Source of the DNA: a virus
Lineage: Duplodnaviria; Heunggongvirae; Uroviricota; Caudoviricetes
DNA: 48,410 nucleotides
IMG/VR virus record: IMGVR_UViG_2531839667_000010
Span: 1-48,410 of that record
Direction: 5' to 3' (one strand)
In this document: in pieces, positions 1,667 through 44,089 of the stretch
Numbering within the stretch: the first letter of the stretch is position 1
Layout: each line of letters begins with the position of its first letter
Notes under the pieces: model-generated
Told to the model about the DNA's origin: nothing
The model's input: only the letters and a program-made list of their open reading frames with translations
Databases searched by the model: none
Position numbers and translations under genes: made by a program

Positions 1667-2764
1667 ATGGCGTACTATAACATAGAGAAACGACTAAAAT
1701 CCGATGGCACACCACGCTATCGCTGTAATGTGATTATCAAAGAAAAAGGTGTTATCACTTACAGGGAAAGCAAAACATTCCCTAAACATGCTCATGCCAA
1801 AACATGGGGCACACAGAAAGTGATGGAATTAGATCTATATGGCATTCCATCATCAAATGCAGTTGACGGACTTACAGTCCGTGACTTACTACACAAATAT
1901 TTAAATGACCCAAATGCCGGAGGTAAAGCAGGCCGTACTAAAAGATATGTGCTGGAACTGCTTATGGATAGTGACATCTCCGCGATCAAACTATCTGAAC
2001 TGACAGAAAATGACGTAATTGAACATTGCAGGCTAAGAAACAACGCTGGTGCAGGTCCAGCTACAGTTAGCCACGATGTTAGTTATCTTGGCAGTGTTCT
2101 GGATGCTGCCAAACCTGTATATGGAATTAATTACACATCAAACCCAGCAAAAGCCGCTCGTCCATATCTACTTAAACTTGGTTTAATTGGTAAATCAAAC
2201 CGTCGTAATCGTAGACCAGCATCTGATGAACTGGACATGCTCATTGAAGGCCTTCAACAACGATCTACTCATAAATGCTCAAAAATTCCGTTCGTTGATA
2301 TCCTCAAATTTTCTGTGTGGTCCTGTATGCGAATCGGAGAAGTATGCCGGTTACGATGGGAAGATCTCGACCAGGAACAAAAATCTATACTCGTAAGAGA
2401 CAGGAAAGATCCACGCAAAAAGGAAGGCAACCACATGAAAGTAGCCTTGCTTGGGGAAGCCTGGGATATCGTCCAACGACAGCCCCAAAAATCGGAATTC
2501 ATTTTTCCATATAACAGCACTTCTGTTACTGCGGGATTTCAGAGGGTAAGAAGCAAATTAGGTATTAAGGATCTGCGATACCATGATTTGCGTAGAGAAG
2601 GGGCAAGTCGCTTATTTGAGGCTGGTTTTAGTATTGAGGAAGTAGCCCAGGTTACAGGGCATCGTTCATTAAACGTGCTATGGCAGGTATATACCGAACT
2701 GTATCCAAAATCTTTACATAATCGTTTTGAAGAGCTCCAAAGGAGCAGAAATAAGATCTCTTGA
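1667..2764 (+). CDS. int: Tyrosine-type phage integrase (dusA-associated arrangement)
   Basis: 365 aa; C-terminal catalytic region with LRYHDLRREGASRL (H-x-x-R) and GHRSLNVLWQVYTEL (Tyr nucleophile); divergent from and immediately beside the dusA 5' end. Confidence 0.9.
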   Translation: MAYYNIEKRLKSDGTPRYRCNVIIKEKGVITYRESKTFPKHAHAKTWGTQKVMELDLYGIPSSNAVDGLTVRDLLHKYLNDPNAGGKAGRTKRYVLELLMDSDISAIKLSELTENDVIEHCRLRNNAGAGPATVSHDVSYLGSVLDAAKPVYGINYTSNPAKAARPYLLKLGLIGKSNRRNRRPASDELDMLIEGLQQRSTHKCSKIPFVDILKFSVWSCMRIGEVCRLRWEDLDQEQKSILVRDRKDPRKKEGNHMKVALLGEAWDIVQRQPQKSEFIFPYNSTSVTAGFQRVRSKLGIKDLRYHDLRREGASRLFEAGFSIEEVAQVTGHRSLNVLWQVYTELYPKSLHNRFEELQRSRNKIS

Positions 2765-2812
2765 CACTGTTTATCCATACAGTTAAAAATAATACTGTAT
2801 ACAAACACAGTA
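2761..2812 (+). promoter_or_regulatory. SOS-regulated promoter with two LexA boxes
   Basis: TTGACA at 2761-2766 with TAAAAT about 17 nt downstream; two CTGT-N8-ACAG motifs (ctgtttatccatacag 2767-2782, ctgtatacaaacacag 2795-2810); AGAGGGA Shine-Dalgarno before the ATG at 2826. Confidence 0.6.
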
Positions 2813-2825
2813 TAGAGGGACTTTT

Positions 2826-3044
2826 ATGCGTATTGAAATCTGCATAGCCAAAGAAAAAATGACTAAAATGCCAACCGGTGCTGTGGATGCGTTAAAGGAA
2901 GAATTAACCCGACGCATCAGTAAACGTTATGACGATGTAGAGGTGATCGTAAAAGCCACCAGCAACGATGGCCTTTCTGTTACACGCACCGCAGATAAGG
3001 ATTCTGCAAAAACTTTTGGGGTATTCGGGATAAGTAGTTGTTGA
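2826..3044 (+). pseudogene. dinI: DinI-like protein, 5' portion, interrupted by an IS after codon 64
   Basis: [31 protein letters not shown] resembles the DinI N-terminus as I recall it; the frame runs into IS sequence at 3019 and ends with unrelated residues. Confidence 0.7.
3011..3018. repeat. Target-site duplication (left copy), AACTTTTG
   Basis: Identical 8-mer directly flanks the IS at 5679-5686. Confidence 0.65.
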
Positions 3045-3095
3045 AAACCTTTTGATAAGATCTGCAATTCATTTTTATAGACGGTGAAAGTTGTT

Positions 3096-3123
3096 GTTGA
3101 CCTCCTGATCGGATTCCTATACT
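3096..3123 (+). promoter_or_regulatory. Putative sigma-70 promoter inside the IS
   Basis: GTTGAC(C) then TATACT; spacer 15-16 nt, so sub-optimal. About 250 nt upstream of the ORF6N gene. Confidence 0.3.
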
Positions 3124-3369
3124 GTTTGTCTCACGAGGCGTAGAAACCTCTCCAAAAGCGGTCCGAACCAACCCCGATAGTGTTGGATTTTTTATGCCTG
3201 TTATTCAGTGATTGCACTGTATGCGGTCACACCCCGATCAATGTCGGGAGGGCGACGAATACAACACCCAGCGATGGGGAATAAGTTCGCGGTATCTTTT
3301 GGGCCGTTTCTAACCTCCCGACACCCACTTATGTGGATTTCCGTAGAAAGAAACCAAAAGAGGTCAGTC

Positions 3370-4262
3370 ATGACTAACCATTCTCCAGTAGAAAGCCTGC
3401 CAGTTGTTACCTATAACAGCCTCCCGGTGATCACCACCGAACTGCTGGCAAAACTCTACAATACCGAACCCAAATACATTCAAACCAACACGGCGCGTAA
3501 TGAATCACGTTTCGTTGCTGGAAAGCACTTCTTTAAACTGGAAGGCACTGAATAAAAGACTTTAAGAACAGACCATCTTCAAGAGGGTTAGTTGGTTCTC
3601 GCGCTCGTAGCCTTGTTCTCTGGACGGAGCGCGGTGCCGCTCGCCACGCCAAAATGCTCGAAACCGATCAGGCGTGGGAAGTGTTCGAAAAGCTGGAAGA
3701 CTTCTATTTTAGCCAGAAGGAAAAGGCCGAGCAGATTCGTAAGAATCGCCAGTGTACAGCTACCCAGCTTATCCCGCTGCGCCAAACGGCAGAACGGTTA
3801 ATCACGACAGGCCTCGGCAAAATCTATCCCGACATATGGAAGCTGGTTCATCAGCGCTTCGATGTTGAGCATATCCACCAGTTGCAGCCTGAGCAGGTCG
3901 GTGAAGCCATCGAGTATCTGAACGTGCTGGAAGGTGAGTACCTGGGGCGCGAGACGCTTCCGGCAACCCCATCAGTGCATTTCACCAACGAGGAGCTTTG
4001 CGCTCTCTGCTGGGTATGGAATGCCGCCGAATACATGCGGGAGAAGATAGAGCTGGCCTATCCCGCAATGAAAACTCTCAAGTCTGAATACGCACCGAGC
4101 TTCTACTCAATGGCATTTGAGTATCAGCGAACACTGGAAGCCGGTAGAAAGGTTCTCGAACGGGAAACAAAACACATCGTTCCGCATCCTCACAGCGTGT
4201 CAGATGAAAACTGGCGGCGAGTCCTGCCTCGTCTGCGCCAAAATAGCTTACCTCGCGGATAA
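3370..4262 (+). pseudogene. ORF6N-domain (antirepressor-type) protein gene with a frameshift near 3550
   Basis: N-terminal frame (ATG 3370, GAGG Shine-Dalgarno) ends FFKLEGTE at TAA 3553-3555; a second frame continues ...SLVLWTERGAARHAKMLETDQAWEVFEKLEDFYF to 4262, matching my recollection of the ORF6N family; consistent with loss of one T at ctgaa-t-aaaag. Confidence 0.55.
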
Positions 4263-4276
4263 TAAGGGACAAAACG

Positions 4277-5599
4277 ATGAGCGAGATTGCACCAACGAGC
4301 CTGTTACACCCTCTGAAAGCTACCGTTCTGGATTTTCAGGAGGATGAGCACGACTATCAGTTCAAGGTTGAATACCCGGAGCCGACCTGCTGCCATGCCT
4401 GCGGTGCAGTGTCTGACATCATCCGCTTTAACAAAAAGCTGGTGAAGTACCGGGATGTTCCCATGCACGGGAAGCGCGTCACGCTCTGGGTCGTAACACG
4501 CCGTTATCAGTGCAAATCATGCAAAGGCACATTCACCCCGGCCATCCCCGAGATGGCCGAAGCCCACCGCATGACAAAGCGCTGCTATCAGTACATCATT
4601 AAACGTGCGCTGACCGGCACTAACGCCAGCGTCGCGCAAGATGTTGGCTTTGATGAGTCCGTCACCCGTGGGGTCATCAAGTCCTACTGCGAGCAAAAGG
4701 CGAAGACCTATAAGCCTGTGCTGCCGCGAGTGCTGGGCATTGATGAGCTGTACCTGAACAAAACCTTCCGCTGTGTCCTGACCAACATCGAGCAGGGAAC
4801 CATTATTGACATACTGGAATCCCGGCAAAGTAACGTCATCTACAACCGTCTGGCGCATATGGAAGGCCGTGAGAACGTGCAGATCGTCTGTCAGGATATG
4901 TGGAAGCCATACCGTGACGTTGCCAGCCAGCTATTCCCTAAAGCCAGCATCGTCGTTGACCGCTTCCATATCCAGCGCATGGCTAACGAGGCGATGGAAA
5001 TGCTGCGTAAGTCGCTCAAAAAGGATCTGACAGTACACCACCGACGGCAGCTTAAAGGCGACCGTAAGATGATGTTGATGCGTAAGCGTGACCTTAACCC
5101 TATGCAGCAGATGATTATCGAAACGTGGCTGGATCACTATCCTGAGTTGGGTCTGGCCTATCAGCTCAAGGAAGAGTTCTTTGATATCTGGCTGGCACAG
5201 ACTGAACCTGAGGCCAGAATGCGCTATCAGAACTGGCTGGCAAAGATACCCGAGCATCATAAAAAGCACTGGAAGCCGCTGATAACATCCATGACGAACT
5301 GGGAGAAAGAGATATTCGCCTACTTCGGCCCGGCCCAGCGGAAGACCAACGCCTTTACGGAATCCATCAACCGCAAGATGCGCGATCTGAACCGTGATTC
5401 GCGCGGAATGTCCTTTGAGATGTTCAGGGCTAAAACACTGTTCACTCTCAAGCATAAGTTCAGCAAGCCTAAACCAGTGAAAGAATCACCGTTCACGGTT
5501 GGCTATGTCACCGCTGGTTCGTGGGATCTGGATGATGAAATCCGGGACGATTACGGCGTATCTATCGACGCTATTCTGGAATCCAAAATCGGCGAATAA
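4277..5599 (+). CDS. ISL3-family transposase
   Basis: 440 aa; N-terminal zinc-finger/HTH pattern (CCHACG ... [10 protein letters not shown]) typical of ISL3 transposases; sits between ISL3-like terminal repeats with an 8-bp duplication. Confidence 0.75.
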
Positions 5600-5678
5600 A
5601 TAGCCGCCAACAACACACCCATCATTTTCCATTTAACGGGGTTCGGGATGTCCTAACAACAGGATTTCCCGAATACCC

Positions 5679-5686
5679 AACTTTTG
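5679..5686. repeat. Target-site duplication (right copy), AACTTTTG
   Basis: Identical to 3011-3018. Confidence 0.65.
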
Positions 5687-5742
5687 TTCAGGAGACTCTG
5701 AAAGATACCTGGGAATCTGCTGACGAGTGGTTTGTTCACTAA
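5687..5742 (+). pseudogene. dinI: DinI-like protein, displaced 3' end
   Basis: Joining 3018 to 5687 gives ...[23 protein letters not shown]-stop, resembling the conserved DinI C-terminus. Confidence 0.6.
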
Positions 5743-5885
5743 TTAACACGTAAAATCGGTAACGGCTGGAAATCATTCAATACTCGCACTATCGAAAGTT
5801 CGCCAGCCAGCCGCAGCACGTTCTTGCATACGACGTGGCTGCGGCTTCCAACATTAGACAAATAACTCTTTAAATTGCTTTTAAA

Positions 5886-6449
5886 TTATTTCGTTTGAAT
5901 GCCAGTAACAGGAAATCGTTTATATAGGGTTGATAGCCCAACGTTATAGATACGTGCAACATAACGCCGTGATTTCCCTGCCGCTATGAGCGCTCCCATC
6001 TGTTGCCACTGCTCGTCGCTAAACTTCGGTCTACGCCCACCAATCCGGCCTTTGGATCTGGCAATAGCCAAACCAGCTAAAGTTCGCTCGCTATTCAAAT
6101 CAGATTCATACTGCGCAGCAGAAAGAATATTACGGAAATTATAGCGACCACTTGCTGTTTTCAGGTCTACGCCATCTGTAATACTGCGGAAGTTGATACC
6201 CTTTTCCTGTAACTGCTGGAACATCAACAGCGCATGCAGAACGTTGCGGCCTATCCTGTCCAGCTTCCAGACCACCAGTTCATCCCCCGGCTGCATAGTG
6301 GCGATCAGCCGTTTTAGAACCGGCCGATTCGATTTCCTCCCGCTGGCATGCTCTTCAAAAATTTTCTCACAACCCGCTGACTTGAGCGCCGTTAGTTGCA
6401 ATTCAGTGTCCTGGTGGTTTGTTGATACTCGGGCATAACCGTAAATCAT
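5886..6449 (-). CDS. Serine recombinase / DNA invertase (Pin/Gin/Hin family)
   Basis: 187 aa from MIYGYARVSTNHQDTELQ (catalytic Ser region) with a C-terminal HTH; AGGAG Shine-Dalgarno. The listed 278-aa ORF is an upstream over-extension. Confidence 0.85.
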   Translation of the reverse strand: MIYGYARVSTNHQDTELQLTALKSAGCEKIFEEHASGRKSNRPVLKRLIATMQPGDELVVWKLDRIGRNVLHALLMFQQLQEKGINFRSITDGVDLKTASGRYNFRNILSAAQYESDLNSERTLAGLAIARSKGRIGGRRPKFSDEQWQQMGALIAAGKSRRYVARIYNVGLSTLYKRFPVTGIQTK

Positions 6450-6501
6450 GGGATTTCTCCTGTTATGAAAACAGGAGAAACGGCGAAGCATCACCAGATT
6501 T

Positions 6502-6972
6502 TTGATGGTTATAAAAAAGGTTGGTTTGGGAGAAGGCTCTGCATTACCTGTTGGTGTCCCTGTTCCGTGGCCTTCAGCTACGCCGCCAACAGGCTGGCTG
6601 AAATGCAATGGCGCTGCCTTTGATAAGGTTAAATATCCCCGTCTTGCTACAGCATATCCATCAGGGAAACTACCTGATCTCCGCGGTGAGTTTATTCGTG
6701 GCTGGGATGATGGGCGCAGCATTGATACAGGGCGTGCTTTATTGAGTATTCAGAGTGATGAAGTCAGAAAGCTCGCATTAAAATACTGGGGACCAGCTTC
6801 AAACAGTTCACCATCAAAAACATTTGCACTCAGCGACAGTGCCGGTGGCGGGTTGTACACGGATGGAATAAGTCAGGCAAGCGGTGGGATTATCAACGCT
6901 TTTCAGCTCCCTGGCGGTAACGAAACCCGCCCACGAAATGTTGCATTTAACTATATCGTGAGGGCTGCATAA
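6502..6972 (+). CDS. Alternative tail-fibre C-terminal cassette, currently in the silent orientation
   Basis: No ATG (the frame opens after TGA 6466-6468); carries the conserved tail-fibre C-terminal motif PWPSATPPTGWLKCNGAAF...DLRGEFIRGWDDGR; preceded by a crossover site that shares reading phase with the expressed fibre. Confidence 0.6.
   Translation: MMVIKKVGLGEGSALPVGVPVPWPSATPPTGWLKCNGAAFDKVKYPRLATAYPSGKLPDLRGEFIRGWDDGRSIDTGRALLSIQSDEVRKLALKYWGPASNSSPSKTFALSDSAGGGLYTDGISQASGGIINAFQLPGGNETRPRNVAFNYIVRAA
6509..6534. other. Invertase crossover site (hix/gix-like), left
   Basis: TTATAAAAAAGGTTGGTTTGGGAGAA; its reverse complement TTCTCCCAAACCAACCTTTTTTATAA resembles hix and shares 14 bp with the right site. 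Confidence 0.6.
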
Positions 6973-7574
6973 TGGATAATGCTGTATTAAATAGCGAGTT
7001 TATTGCCACGAAGGCGGGGAGTATTACCGTCTATAACTATGATAGTGAAACACGGGAATATATTTCCACGTCAACTGAATATCTTGCTGTGGGTGTCGGT
7101 ATTCCGGCATGTTCCTGTCTTGATGCACCTGGCATACATAAGGTTGGTTATGCAATCTGTCGTTCTGTGAATTTAAATTCATGGGAATATGTGCCAGACC
7201 ATCGCGGTGAAATCGTCTATAGCACCGAAACAGGAGAATCAAAAGAAATCACAGCTCCGGGTGATTACCCTGAAAATACAACCACTATCGCCCCTTTATC
7301 TCCATACGATAAATGGGATGGTGAGAAATGGGTGACCGATACTGAGGCACAGCATAGCGCCGCAGTAGACGCGGCAGAAGCACAGCGCCAGTCACTGATT
7401 GATGCTGCTATGGCTTCCATCAGTCTGATTCAACTGAAATTGCAGGCCGGACGGAAACTGACGCAGGCAGAAACAACCCGACTTAACGCCGTGCTGGATT
7501 ACACTGACGCGGTGACGGCAACAGATACCAGCACCGCGCCGGATGTCATCTGGCCTGAACTGCCGGCGGCGTAG
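6972..7574 (+). CDS. Tail fibre assembly protein (partner of the silent cassette)
   Basis: 200 aa; C-terminal ...LNAVLDYTDAVTATDTSTAPDVIWPELPAA pattern typical of Tfa chaperones; immediately follows the alternative fibre cassette. Confidence 0.7.
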   Translation: MDNAVLNSEFIATKAGSITVYNYDSETREYISTSTEYLAVGVGIPACSCLDAPGIHKVGYAICRSVNLNSWEYVPDHRGEIVYSTETGESKEITAPGDYPENTTTIAPLSPYDKWDGEKWVTDTEAQHSAAVDAAEAQRQSLIDAAMASISLIQLKLQAGRKLTQAETTRLNAVLDYTDAVTATDTSTAPDVIWPELPAA

Positions 7575-7998
7575 GCCATTTAATATCTGGCGCACCGGAA
7601 GTATCGACCAGTTCCAGTGCGTCCAGATAATCCAGCCACAGATTATATTGCGCCAGTTCCTCGCCTTTCAGACGACCAATAGCCGCTTTACCAGGCCATT
7701 GTTTACTGTTCATATAATCGTTGGCCTGATTAATTAGTAGCTGTCTTTCTGATTCAGTAATTTCAATAAGTTCTTCATGCGTAGGGGCAGGAATATCCGC
7801 CCACGCGGGCAGCCCATCACCTCCGGCAATACGGATTTTTCCTTGTGGCGGTTCAGCCATAAATTCACTGATAATATTTTGACTCACCTCCTTAGCATCT
7901 GATAAATCCCATCCCTCTGATTTATATTTATCAATCATATCCACAGGGAAAAAAGCATTATGCCTTGCGCTATAAACATATTCGTTCATATAAATCAT
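7546..7998 (-). CDS. Tail fibre assembly protein (expressed orientation)
   Basis: 150 aa; C-terminal ...LDYLDALELVDTSGAPDIKWPTPPAV Tfa motif; convergent with the other tfa, as in invertible G/C-segment systems. Confidence 0.7.
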   Translation of the reverse strand: MIYMNEYVYSARHNAFFPVDMIDKYKSEGWDLSDAKEVSQNIISEFMAEPPQGKIRIAGGDGLPAWADIPAPTHEELIEITESERQLLINQANDYMNSKQWPGKAAIGRLKGEELAQYNLWLDYLDALELVDTSGAPDIKWPTPPAVQAR

Positions 7999-39568: not shown

Positions 39569-40725
39569 TTGCGCCCCCTTACCTCTGAAGAGTTCAGCGA
39601 CGAATGAATAAGACGGGCAAGAAATGCCGCATCGTTAATTCGGTCATACAGACTTACAGCCAGCGGTGATTCAGCTTTTTCCAGCATGGGATAAAGCTGC
39701 TGCAACCAGACCTGATGAATTGATGAAATGTAGGAATAGAGAACGCTGGCGTTATGTGCAACGTCGCTCAGTACAGAGGGATTTGAAAGCTGTTTCTCCA
39801 TCTGGTTAAAGGCATTGATGTATGCCTCTTTGAACCGGGCAGCACGTTTACCAGTGAAGCCCATAGCAAGGAACGCGAAGCCATCGCGGGTTATTTGATA
39901 GCAAGGTAGTTTGCGAGTACCGCCGTTGGGCTGGCGTACCAAAATTGATGTCTCCGCAAAATTGCGGGCACAAAACTCTGGAGAACAATCCAAAATGCGA
40001 ATCTTTTTCAGAACATCGTCATGACGTTTAGAGAAGAAGTCAGCAACAGCCAAAGAAGATGTAACAGCCTGACCATCAACGATGGCAATTTCAGGTTGAG
40101 AGAGGGTTGGGACAGTAGCCATGATGGCAGCCTCCGTATGCAATGGATAACTTCCACCACCGGAAACGCCAATTTCGCTGGTGGTGAACTGAGCAGGGTT
40201 GGCGTAACCGGCGCATACGGAAACCGGCGCACCTTTCGGTGCCCCCACCCAGCCCACCATAATTTGGGTATAGCTGAGTTGTAGCAACAAAAAAGACGCT
40301 AACGCGCCAATTGTCGCCGTATGCAATTCCAGGACGCCAATCCCGGCACCCGCTTTATAAGGTGCCTGAACAGTGTAACGTCCCGGAATGGCAGAATCAA
40401 TGTGCTGGTGGTCCTTCACACTCAACAAAATCACGCCTGAATTTCCACAAAGGACTAAAGCACTCATGCGGGTAGTCTTTGCGAAGATAGATAACGCGCT
40501 GTGTTTCTGGCTCCCAACGAATAACATGGACATAAAGCCCTCTTCCGTCACGAAACCAGCGGTTAAGTTCCTGCACAACTCGCCCCCCACAGTCAGGTAA
40601 AGTTCTCTGTGGTTACTTACAGCCAGGTGATTTGGTAATCTGCATTCATGCCGTAACAACAGGTGTTCAGCGACGCTGACCACCAGCTGTTGCGACAAAC
40701 GGTTATTTGCCGTTAAACTGTTCAT
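39565..40725 (-). CDS. Rha-domain phage regulatory protein (start uncertain)
   Basis: Rha-type domain (...IVDGQAVTSSLAVADFFSKRHDDVLKKI...) in residues about 205-300. The longest ORF starts at 40725, coupled to the upstream stop; an internal ATG at 40121-40123 with a GGAGG Shine-Dalgarno would give a 186-aa Rha protein. Confidence 0.55.
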   Translation of the reverse strand: MNSLTANNRLSQQLVVSVAEHLLLRHECRLPNHLAVSNHRELYLTVGGELCRNLTAGFVTEEGFMSMLFVGSQKHSALSIFAKTTRMSALVLCGNSGVILLSVKDHQHIDSAIPGRYTVQAPYKAGAGIGVLELHTATIGALASFLLLQLSYTQIMVGWVGAPKGAPVSVCAGYANPAQFTTSEIGVSGGGSYPLHTEAAIMATVPTLSQPEIAIVDGQAVTSSLAVADFFSKRHDDVLKKIRILDCSPEFCARNFAETSILVRQPNGGTRKLPCYQITRDGFAFLAMGFTGKRAARFKEAYINAFNQMEKQLSNPSVLSDVAHNASVLYSYISSIHQVWLQQLYPMLEKAESPLAVSLYDRINDAAFLARLIHSSLNSSEVRGRK

Positions 40726-43171: not shown

Positions 43172-44089
43172 ATGAACAATCCGTTTTTCAAAAATATGTT
43201 GGTGTATCGCATTAGTCGCGATTTCACCATCAACCAGGAAGAGCTGGAACAGCAGCTTGAACTATTTCGCTTCACTCCATGCGGTAGCCAGGATATGGCA
43301 AAAACCGGTTGGGTATCACCACTTGGTCAGCTGTCAGATCGCTTGCATCACACTGTCAATAATCAAGTGTTGTTGGTTATTCGCCGGGAAGAAAAAATAC
43401 TGCCATCTCCTGTCATTGCTGAAGAACTGCGCAAGCGTGTGTCGCGTCTGGAATCCGATCAGGGGCGTCGCCTCAAAAAAACTGAGAAAGATTCGCTGCG
43501 TGATGAAGTGTTGCACTCCCTGCTTCCTCGGGCGTTCTCCAAAAACTCGACTGTTAGTTTGTGGATCAACGTCACCGACGGTCTGATCATGGTTGATGCA
43601 GCCAGCGCTAAACGTGCCGAAGACTCACTGGCCCTGCTTCGTAAAACTCTCGGTTCTCTCCCGGTGGTACCGCTGACTATGGAAACGCCGATCTAACTAA
43701 CTATGACCGAATGGGTTCGTTCCGGTAGTGCGCCTGCTGGCTTTGGCCTGGGTGATGAAGCCGAACTGAAAGCTATTCTTGAAGATGGCGGTATTGGACG
43801 CTTTAAAAAACAGACTCTGGTCAGTGACGAAATTCATGTGCATCTGGAAGCTGGCAAAGTAGTTACAAAGCTGTCTATCGACTGGCAACAGCGCATTCAG
43901 TTCGTTCTTTGCGATGACGGCAGCATCAAACGCCTTAAGTTCTCTAATGAGATTACAGAACAAAACGACGATATCGACCGTGAGGATGCGGCTCAGCGGT
44001 TCGACGCTGACTTTGTTCTGATGACCGGCGAGCTTATCTCTCTCATTAACGGATTAACAACCTCTCTCGGCGGCGAAGCCAAGCGATAA
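43172..44089 (+). pseudogene. rdgC: RdgC-like recombination-associated protein, interrupted by one in-frame TAA
   Basis: Listed ORFs 43172..43696 and 43703..44089 are in the same frame, separated only by TAA at 43694-43696; together they resemble full-length RdgC as I recall ([11 protein letters not shown]..., ...[19 protein letters not shown]...). Confidence 0.75.

Follow-up and report, generated by a model that had tools for sequence, protein, structure and literature searches.

A C4-like RNA and an antirepressor-like gene ahead of the transposase in an ISL3 insertion-sequence lineage: a probable phage-immunity-type operon

In bacteriophages P1 and P7, the immI region is laid out as a first pair of target sites (a1 b1), the c4 RNA, a second pair (a2 b2) at the ribosome-binding site (RBS), and then icd-ant; the C4 RNA is said to act in trans. 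In Gifsy-1 of Salmonella, IsrK is a short RNA that works in trans on the read-through form of its own mRNA, and the antirepressor gene anrP is controlled by translational coupling. The sRNA-Xcc1 of Xanthomonas campestris is 88 nt long, stable and mapped at its ends, and the literature treats it mainly as a trans-acting, virulence-linked small RNA whose targets are unknown or are predicted at distant loci; in Rfam, it shares no clan with C4. Phage P22 controls ant by Arc/Mnt and the sar RNA, with no C4-type RNA. Among insertion sequences (ISs), IS10/Tn10 encodes RNA-OUT, a small RNA that pairs at the transposase translation start and brings about multicopy inhibition. Here, we describe an ISL3-family IS of 2,660 bp, located at positions 3019–5678 of a 48,410-nt stretch of viral DNA (Caudoviricetes; IMG/VR record IMGVR_UViG_2531839667_000010; the whole stretch is called the window), in which parts resembling those of these systems are joined to a transposase.

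Between its ends, the IS holds a C4-like RNA, an antirepressor (Ant)-like gene and the transposase gene tnpA, in that order and on one strand (Table 1). We propose that, in an ISL3 lineage, the transposase gene closes a phage-immunity-type operon, and that the RNA would repress the ant-like gene and, with it, the transposase; we regard this reading as reasonably probable. The features that lead to it are the RNA, the sites complementary to it, and the constancy of the gene order, which are considered in turn, each with the alternative on which it bears.

The leader RNA matches the Rfam family sRNA-Xcc1 (RF02221) over the full length of the model (positions 1–87), with a score of 62.6 bits (gathering score 53; E 3e-10), and is thus a member of that family. 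The minimum-free-energy fold of 3243–3326 is the three-way junction of the Rfam model (−32.2 kcal/mol, z −2.47), and the junction is retained when the full leader, 3130–3375, is folded (−75.2 kcal/mol, z −2.2). In an alignment of six sequences, some pairs are compensatory, and the ACC that follows the closing stem is kept. C4 and sRNA-Xcc1 have a topology in common, namely a closing stem, two hairpins, a 3′ junction and an ACC tail. An earlier note on this DNA, made from the letters alone, had pointed to a structured leader with a 10-bp inverted repeat (tgtcgggagg 3242–3251 / cctcccgaca 3314–3323) and had called for a structure prediction. The repeat is exact and forms the closing helix of the sRNA-Xcc1 RNA, the prediction returns the three-way junction just described, and what the note called a structured leader is an antisense RNA of the C4 type that has its target sites beside it.

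Two blocks of the RNA, b′ (TCTTTTGG, in the loop of hairpin 3) and a′ (in the 3′ junction), have complements on either side of it. The upstream pair, a1/b1, is exactly complementary to a′ and b′. In the downstream pair, b2 overlaps the Shine–Dalgarno sequence GAGG (3360–3363), 6 nt ahead of the ATG at 3370. A collinear two-block match as long as that in the window arose upstream in 4 of 20,000 shuffles and downstream in 8 of 20,000, and both together in none of the 20,000. All ten variants that were tabulated, four from ISs and the remainder their prophage counterparts, have exact collinear complements of 6–9 nt to both RNA blocks, upstream and just before the start codon, although the block sequences differ between variants. 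Five specificities occur in enteric IS copies: CCAAAAG (window and L001; relatives are numbered L001 onward), CCAAAC (L024), TCAAAAG (L034), CAGTGAG (L002, L015) and CAGTAAG (L003). In every one of the five, a change in the RNA loop is matched by a change in the RBS-proximal b2; the upstream b1 tracks the loop in four and is degenerate in L034, whose gene is of the Bro-N variant. Within one RNA class, a matrix of short segments gave a mean duplex energy of −17.5 kcal/mol for cognate pairs and −10.9 kcal/mol for non-cognate pairs. Another matrix, of whole-RNA duplexes with long flanks and with GC-rich Pseudomonas and enteric sequences mixed, had its lowest value on the diagonal in only 4–6 of 10 rows, and was dropped in favour of the exact-complement tables and the short-segment matrix because it was too noisy. 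As in C4, then, two blocks are complementary to a1/b1 and to a2/b2 at the next RBS and co-vary with them, and by analogy with C4, excision by RNase P and repression in trans with polarity are predicted for the IS RNA.

The co-variation fits pairing in cis as well as in trans. It would be compatible with a leader from which no free RNA is made and in which alternative folds through a1/b1 or a2/b2 switch the RBS, an alternative that we consider possible but doubtful. The full-leader fold is stable, as this alternative would have it, and the read-through isrK mRNA of Gifsy-1 has inactive and active structures formed by internal pairing. On the other side, sRNA-Xcc1 has been observed as a separate RNA of 88 nt whose ends were mapped, the C4 of P1/P7 is reportedly trans-acting, and the junction, closing stem and ACC tail all survive in the full-leader fold, which fits an excised, stable RNA.

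The gene order is a property of the lineage. Relatives were gathered from one-genome-per-species contigs, metagenomes, plasmids, E. coli genomes, a phage record and contigs encoding the ant-like protein; the one-genome-per-species and metagenome scans used a single transposase query and gave 8 loci each, so that the census is small. In every relative examined (enterobacteria, Pseudomonas and metagenomes; transposases 65–100% identical), a C4-like RNA is followed by an antirepressor-like gene and then by tnpA. At the 16 loci with upstream sequence, the RNA lies 35–48 nt before an ORF of 286–313 aa that abuts tnpA (in the window and L001, the distance was taken to the ATG preceded by a Shine–Dalgarno sequence). 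The junction between ORF and tnpA is a gap of 14 nt in enterics and an overlap of 4 nt in most Pseudomonas types. The whole RNA-ant-tnpA unit is enclosed by the inverted repeats (IRs), and 8-bp duplications flank the element. sRNA-Xcc1 scores above its gathering threshold in all the enteric copies that were scanned with Rfam (window, L001, L002, L003 and L015), and relatives of the Pseudomonas/Stutzerimonas type have C4 (55–63 bits, threshold 45), isrK and c4-a1b1 in the same position, with isrK at or just under its gathering score (48–58 bits against 50).

This constancy is accompanied by an exchange of parts. The N-terminal domain of the ant-like protein is ORF6N in the window, L001 and L024–33, KilA-N in L002, L003 and L015, Bro-N in L004–L011, L018/19 and L034, and Phage_pRha in L017, L020 and L021. 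The window and the KilA-N variants are 95–100% identical at 3019–3100 and from 3750 to the right end, 70–87% identical in the leader, and unrelated over about 3310–3745. Furthermore, the nin regions of E. coli lambdoid prophages, where each ant gene again has a C4 or sRNA-Xcc1 RNA before it, contain ant leaders and genes that share about 75% identity with 3135–3724. Parts of the IS are thus swapped with phages, while the design is retained.

The same exchange could be read as that of pure cargo, a captured phage RNA-ant fragment with no role in transposition that regulates itself or resident prophages. The likeness to lambdoid prophage ant leaders and genes, the unrelated 3310–3745 segment between variants that otherwise hardly differ, which points to exchange with outside sources, and the fact that the proteins are ordinary phage Ant homologues all agree with this, as do the unrelated passengers of other ISL3 elements, e.g. 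the permease and ArsR regulator of CLJ-ISL3/ISPst2. However, the RNA-ant-tnpA order is constant from E. coli to Pseudomonas despite the replacement of parts, and the 4-nt overlap of ant-like stop and tnpA start in most Pseudomonas types speaks against cargo. Upstream of tnpA, no promoter-like site is seen other than that of the leader, which abuts an IR-like repeat; a consensus scan lists no plus-strand promoter-like or terminator-like site between leader and tnpA. Finally, the closest plasmid-borne ISL3 transposase outside the lineage, that of ISPpu12, is only 43% identical. Taken with this evidence, we judge pure cargo unlikely.

The transposase itself is an ISL3 protein, with DDE_Tnp_ISL3 (PF01610, 3.6e-59) and Zn_ribbon_ISL3 (PF14690, 3.2e-08) domains, and scores 285.5 bits against the NCBIfam model transpos_ISL3 (NF033550), whose cut-off is 180. 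As for its control, several observations weigh against the proposed operon, in addition to a switch in cis. A consensus scan does not list the leader promoter, because the spacer of 15 nt is non-canonical and the scan takes only 16–18 nt. Enteric tnpA has its own Shine–Dalgarno-like AAGGGA and is separated from the ant-like ORF by the 14-nt gap; it may therefore be translated independently of that ORF, and an internal promoter, missed by the scan for its weakness, may lie upstream of it. Neither C4 (RF01695) nor isrK (RF01394) of Rfam has a match in window positions 2800–5900 at E ≤ 1; since the C4 model gives none, the RNA is called C4-like by architecture and not as a member of RF01695, and homology to P1 c4 itself finds no support, the feature shared by both appearing to be the architecture only. 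In addition, the cognate target has the lowest duplex energy in six of seven rows of the short-segment matrix, and specificity between close variants is imperfect.

In the proposed operon, transcription would start from a weak promoter close to the left end, on its inner side, and yield a leader in which a1/b1, a terminator-like hairpin, the ~85-nt C4-like RNA, a2/b2 over the RBS, the ant-like gene and tnpA follow one another. The RNA would be released from the leader, for which the discrete 88-nt sRNA-Xcc1 of Xanthomonas is a precedent, and its b′ loop and a′ junction would pair with a2/b2, blocking translation of the ant-like gene. Less transposase would then be made, via lost coupling or transcriptional polarity, and the a1/b1 segment, perhaps in the form of a short, terminated transcript, could compete for the C4-like RNA. 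As the RNA would be diffusible, every copy with the same b′ and a′ would be repressed, and we propose that this results in copy-number control with a variant-specific ‘immunity’. From the window copy, in which the transposase gene and both ends are intact, only a 61-residue ant-like fragment would be made; the premature stop would leave about 720 nt untranslated before tnpA, and transposase expression would be reduced further.

Table 1. Features of the ISL3-family element and its insertion site, in window positions
Feature	Position	Strand	Details
Interrupted DinI-like gene, 5′ part	2826–3018	+	Pfam DinI 3.1e-11; 3′ part 5687–5742
Left target-site duplication copy	3011–3018		8 bp, AACTTTTG; identical 8-mer at 5679–5686
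Left inverted repeat	3019–3042	+	GGGTATTCGGGATAAGTAGTTGTT; 24 nt, 79% complementary to right repeat
Internal repeat of the left end's inner part	3089–3114	+	AGTTGTTG...; direct repeat of 3036–3061, 73%
Promoter-like element	3097–3123	+	−35 TTGACC 3097–3102, 15-nt spacer, −10 TATACT 3118–3123
Upstream target pair	3141–3158	+	a1 TAGAAAC 3141–3147, b1 CCAAAAG 3152–3158; exact complements of a′, b′
Terminator-like hairpin	3168–3193	+	CCAAC 3168–3172 / GTTGG 3182–3186, T6 run 3188–3193
C4-like antisense RNA, Rfam sRNA-Xcc1 (RF02221)	3243–3330	+	Closing stem 3243–3251/3315–3323, 3′ ACC tail
Recognition blocks	3295–3312	+	b′ TCTTTTGG 3295–3302, hairpin-3 loop; a′ GTTTCTA 3306–3312, 3′ junction
Downstream target pair	3344–3363	+	a2 TAGAAA 3344–3349 / AGAAAC 3349–3354, b2 CCAAAAGA 3354–3361
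ant-like gene, 5′ fragment	3370–3555	+	61 codons of ORF6N domain, premature TAA 3553–3555
ant-like gene, remainder (−1 frame)	3552–4262	+	Rest of ORF6N, central region, P22_AR_C, TAA 4260–4262
One-base (T) deletion site	3553–3554	+	Window GAATAAAAG, L001 GAATTAAAAG
ISL3-family transposase gene (tnpA)	4277–5599	+	440 aa, intact; starts 14 nt past ant-like stop
Right inverted repeat	5655–5678	−	Partner of the 3019–3042 repeat
Right target-site duplication copy	5679–5686		AACTTTTG; matches 3011–3018

The limits of the element were fixed by rebuilding the empty site in silico, with 2501–3018 joined to 5687–6100 and one copy of the duplication left. The resulting 932 bp are found at 100% identity and as a single, uninterrupted piece in E. 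coli O68:H12 strain 97.3, where they are annotated as integrase / DinI-like / recombinase; both IS boundaries are therefore exact, and the host of the window IS is E. coli. Together with the 24-nt IRs and the 8-bp duplication, this identifies an ISL3-type insertion, and the terminal sequence GGGTATTCGG is identical across all relatives compared. The claim of the earlier note that an ISL3 element has some 1.25 kb of extra sequence before its transposase is borne out by IRs, duplication and empty site, and so is the boundary it had asked to have compared, the region lying inside the IRs of the other copies as well. Its term ‘passenger’ is right as to the presence of such a region but too weak a label for what is a constant, operon-like part of the lineage. 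The insertion interrupts a DinI-like gene of a prophage that adjoins a dusA-like (tRNA-dihydrouridine synthase) ORF; the rejoined frame begins MRIE and is annotated as DinI-like in genomes without the insertion. A LexA-box-like palindrome, TACTGTATACAAACACAGTA (CTGT-N8-ACAG), lies ahead of this gene at 2793–2812. The IS has the same orientation as the gene, and SOS-induced dinI transcription could enter the IS leader.

The promoter-like element that the earlier note had placed at 3096–3123 is conserved, TTGACC and TATACT being kept in all seven aligned enteric copies. It abuts an internal repeat of the left end's inner part: the 3′ part of this repeat forms the −35 hexamer, and it is in that hexamer that the IR-like copy (window 3083–3114) exactly ends. 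In the Pseudomonas relative L005, a comparable IR-like copy (L005 1850–1870) likewise abuts a −35 hexamer, TTGACA. The internal repeat is a possible second transposase-binding site or operator, and its position against the promoter means that the transposase could regulate the leader promoter. The terminator-like hairpin is present in the enteric IS variants and in a prophage leader of the sRNA-Xcc1 type (L012b), and occupies the position of the IsrK terminator in prophage modules. It is weak and falls below the limits of the terminator scan, which demands a loop of 3–8 nt; by analogy, it may act as a terminator like that of IsrK.

The ant-like gene of the window is split between two frames, and the earlier note had attributed this to an apparent single-base deletion near 3550 in an ORF6N-type gene. 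The closest copy, L001 (E. coli VREC0864), agrees: it is 98.7% identical over the whole IS and, at 2,661 bp, one base longer, and it encodes an uninterrupted protein of 297 aa, compared with which the window has lost a T at 3553/3554. With this T restored, hidden Markov model searches of the kind the note had suggested find ORF6N at residues 12–96 (6.8e-19) and P22_AR_C at residues 203–269 (4.7e-17), and the repaired protein matches phrog_377 ‘anti-repressor Ant’ in PHROG (5e-59). Its C-terminal half is 64–69% identical to P22AR_N+P22_AR_C ‘phage antirepressor Ant’ proteins; a sequence search among solved structures gave no match for the repaired protein. It thus combines the N-terminal DNA-binding-type domain and the Ant C-terminal domain of antirepressors, and an action on a repressor is conceivable. 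That both frames are one protein is evident not only from L001 but also from five intact 297-aa proteins (P0001–P0005) that are 97–99% identical over the C-terminal 202 residues. P0001 stands for 25 member sequences, and P0004 was read on 24 contigs; in a number of differing genomic settings, its gene precedes that of a 440-aa ISL3 transposase by 14 nt. An intact copy also occurs in E. coli GMM060, which has 13 matching places. RefSeq splits the L001 gene (3352–4245) into an ‘incomplete’ ORF6N pseudogene and a 75-aa P22AR C-terminal protein, although the frame is continuous.

The earlier note had left the cause of the break between decay, sequencing error and recoding. Recoding, a programmed −1 frameshift at 3553 that would yield the full-length protein, was suggested by the −1 frame of the downstream part and by the A/T-rich stretch GAATAAAAGAC in which the break lies. 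It was rejected, and we hold it to be exceedingly improbable: no X XXY YYZ slippery heptamer is present in frame at 3545–3556, L001 has the extra T and an intact frame, the many intact 297-aa proteins are 97–99% identical, and the break is absent from every other copy compared. The two other causes stand, and the break is best read as a one-base deletion peculiar to the window copy, by decay or, less likely, by error. An error of sequencing or assembly, with the gene intact in the genome, would suit a length difference of a single base in a TT dinucleotide beside an A run, within an IS that is otherwise intact. We find it quite unlikely, as a run of two bases is atypical for a homopolymer error, and other differences from L001, amounting to about 1.3%, indicate an independent allele.

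Most insertion sites lie in phage DNA, as in the window, L001, L015, L023 (a Pseudomonas phage record), L026–L028 and L034/L035. These include prophage dinI, baseplate genes, positions beside phage integrase and tail-fibre genes, and the interval between Q and holin; the only non-phage sites are those of L002 and L003 (an ETT2 secretion gene and a pOXA-48-type plasmid). Target preference, tolerance of insertion or a functional link could each account for this bias. A functional link would follow if the ISL3 lineage had adopted a phage immunity module for its own control, with transposition subject to an antisense ‘immunity’ specificity that varies through compensatory changes as in P1 and P7, and if the Ant-like protein connected the IS with phages, for example by de-repressing resident prophages, whereupon IS copies within them would spread by packaging. 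This would explain why most copies sit in phage DNA, and we offer it only as a tentative suggestion of low probability. Choice of target by the RNA, in the manner of the IS110 bridge RNA, was also considered, as CTTTTG is common to b′ (TCTTTTGG) and the duplication (AACTTTTG). It was ruled out: L001, with the same RNA, has the duplication AAGATTGT, and those of other variants (ATTTTTTC, CTTTTAAA, AAAATATG and TTTATTTT) are unrelated to their own b′. We treat the match as a probable coincidence, added to a preference for AT-rich targets.

Several of the relatives deserve separate mention. On a metagenome contig (OLOT01000274, L015), a KilA-N variant is inserted in the same prophage type at the equivalent of window 43191–43198, near the start of a 174-aa ORF (43172–43696), with the duplication AAAATATG at L015 1275–1282 and 3903–3910. 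In pOXA-48-type IncL/M plasmids of several Enterobacterales species, two inverted KilA-N copies lie just downstream of blaOXA-48 (at 3001–5620 and about 6240–8620 of L003), potentially as a composite structure, and RNA-OUT has a match on the IS10 adjoining L003. The P. oleovorans contig NZ_NIUB01000001 has two identical copies, L005 and L006, about 42 kb apart and without matching duplications; the flank CATTAACC is common to the right of L005 and the left of L006, which suggests recombination between the copies. In Pseudomonas gregormendelii, an apparently unrelated RT-15 RNA (RF03018, 182.9 bits) occupies L011 3285–3475, about 65 nt beyond the right IS end. In nin regions of E. coli lambdoid prophages (L012–L014), antirepressor genes stand in tandem, with isrK/c4-a1b1 and C4 before the first and sRNA-Xcc1 before the next, an arrangement that points to serial, independently addressed ant modules.

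The resident prophage of the window has an immI-like module of its own on the minus strand (40121–40365), with isrK at 40289–40365 (61.2 bits), C4 at 40177–40264 (80.7 bits), and a Phage_pRha-like gene from the ATG at 40121, on whose RBS the b2 sequence GCATACGGAGG lies. Its a′/b′ blocks are ACGCCAA / CCGTATGC; because they differ from those of the IS, no cross-talk between the IS RNA and the prophage C4 is predicted. Next to the IS, a serine recombinase/invertase-like gene (5886–6722, minus strand) lies beside tail-fibre-assembly-like ORFs in opposite orientations (6972–7574, plus; 7546–7998, minus), and 5886–7998 looks like an invertible host-range segment of the Gin/Cin type.

Taken singly, the parts of the proposed operon are familiar: ISL3 transposases, C4-type antisense RNAs and phage Ant proteins are each of a known kind. 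As far as the searchable literature goes, what is new is that an IS lineage has a fixed RNA-ant-tnpA combination as its expression unit, and that the sRNA-Xcc1 family has adjacent cognate targets. In the literature searched, no paper links ISL3 with C4, sRNA-Xcc1 or antirepressors, and an earlier description in the papers on ISPst9 or that of 2011 on sRNA-Xcc1, or in ISfinder, is possible; ISPst9 of P. stutzeri (2,472 bp) is possibly a member of the lineage. The sRNA-Xcc1 family thereby gains concrete, testable targets and is placed functionally beside P1 c4, though Rfam separates the two. The lineage spans E. coli, Klebsiella, Salmonella, Pseudomonas and the pOXA-48-type carbapenemase plasmids, and its natural specificity variants make cross-testing of RNA control easy. 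If the RNA does set the transposition frequency, it would be the second antisense copy-number control in ISs after that of IS10, and structurally unrelated to it. The frameshift, by comparison, looks like ordinary decay of a single copy; its relevance is to annotation, an intact 297-aa gene having been mis-split in at least one RefSeq genome.

Compared with the immI region of P1/P7, the IS has the RNA in the leader of the operon that it would control, a′/b′ facing a1/b1 and a2/b2, an antirepressor gene downstream, and specificity variants that differ in b′/b with compensatory changes; its Pseudomonas relatives score directly on C4 (RF01695) and c4-a1b1 (RF03163). In contrast, the window RNA is a match to sRNA-Xcc1, with a shorter closing stem and a longer first hairpin than C4, it stands directly before the ant-like gene with no icd-like small ORF, and the operon ends in a transposase and is bounded by IS ends, not located in a phage genome as such. 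The layout of isrK-orf45-anrP in Gifsy-1 is also similar as far as can be read from the IS sequence, with a leader terminator, a short RNA with upstream targets, an RBS controlled by pairing and an antirepressor, and isrK matches lie ahead of C4 both in relatives of the Pseudomonas type and in prophages of E. coli. The window leader differs in having, in place of an isrK match at E ≤ 1, only the weak hairpin and T6 run. In Gifsy-1, the short RNA activates translation.

Like the IS RNA, sRNA-Xcc1 lies elsewhere ahead of what is probably its target gene, namely symE in integron cassettes and, in APSE phages, an ORF6N gene, and it also precedes ant genes in E. coli lambdoid prophages. Unlike the Xanthomonas RNA, that of the IS has identifiable adjacent targets and resides in an IS. 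The IS protein shares P22_AR_C with P22 Ant and the 64–69% identity of its C-terminal half with P22-type Ant proteins, whereas its N-terminus is ORF6N (KilA-N, Bro-N or Rha in sister variants). Among ISL3 elements, ISPpu12 and CLJ-ISL3/ISPst2 are similar in transposase family, in ends of ~24 bp beginning GGGTAT, in AT-rich 8-bp duplications and in a length above 2.4 kb, but their passengers are metal or lipoprotein genes with regulators, and the ISPpu12 transposase is the distant one noted above. A parallel in mode of action would be RNA-OUT of IS10, since in both cases an IS-encoded RNA pairs with the start region of an IS gene and inhibition would depend on copy number. RNA-OUT, however, is transcribed from the opposite strand, across the start of tnp, whereas the IS RNA is encoded on the same strand, has a tRNA-like/C4-like fold, and would be directed at the ant-like cistron and not at tnpA.

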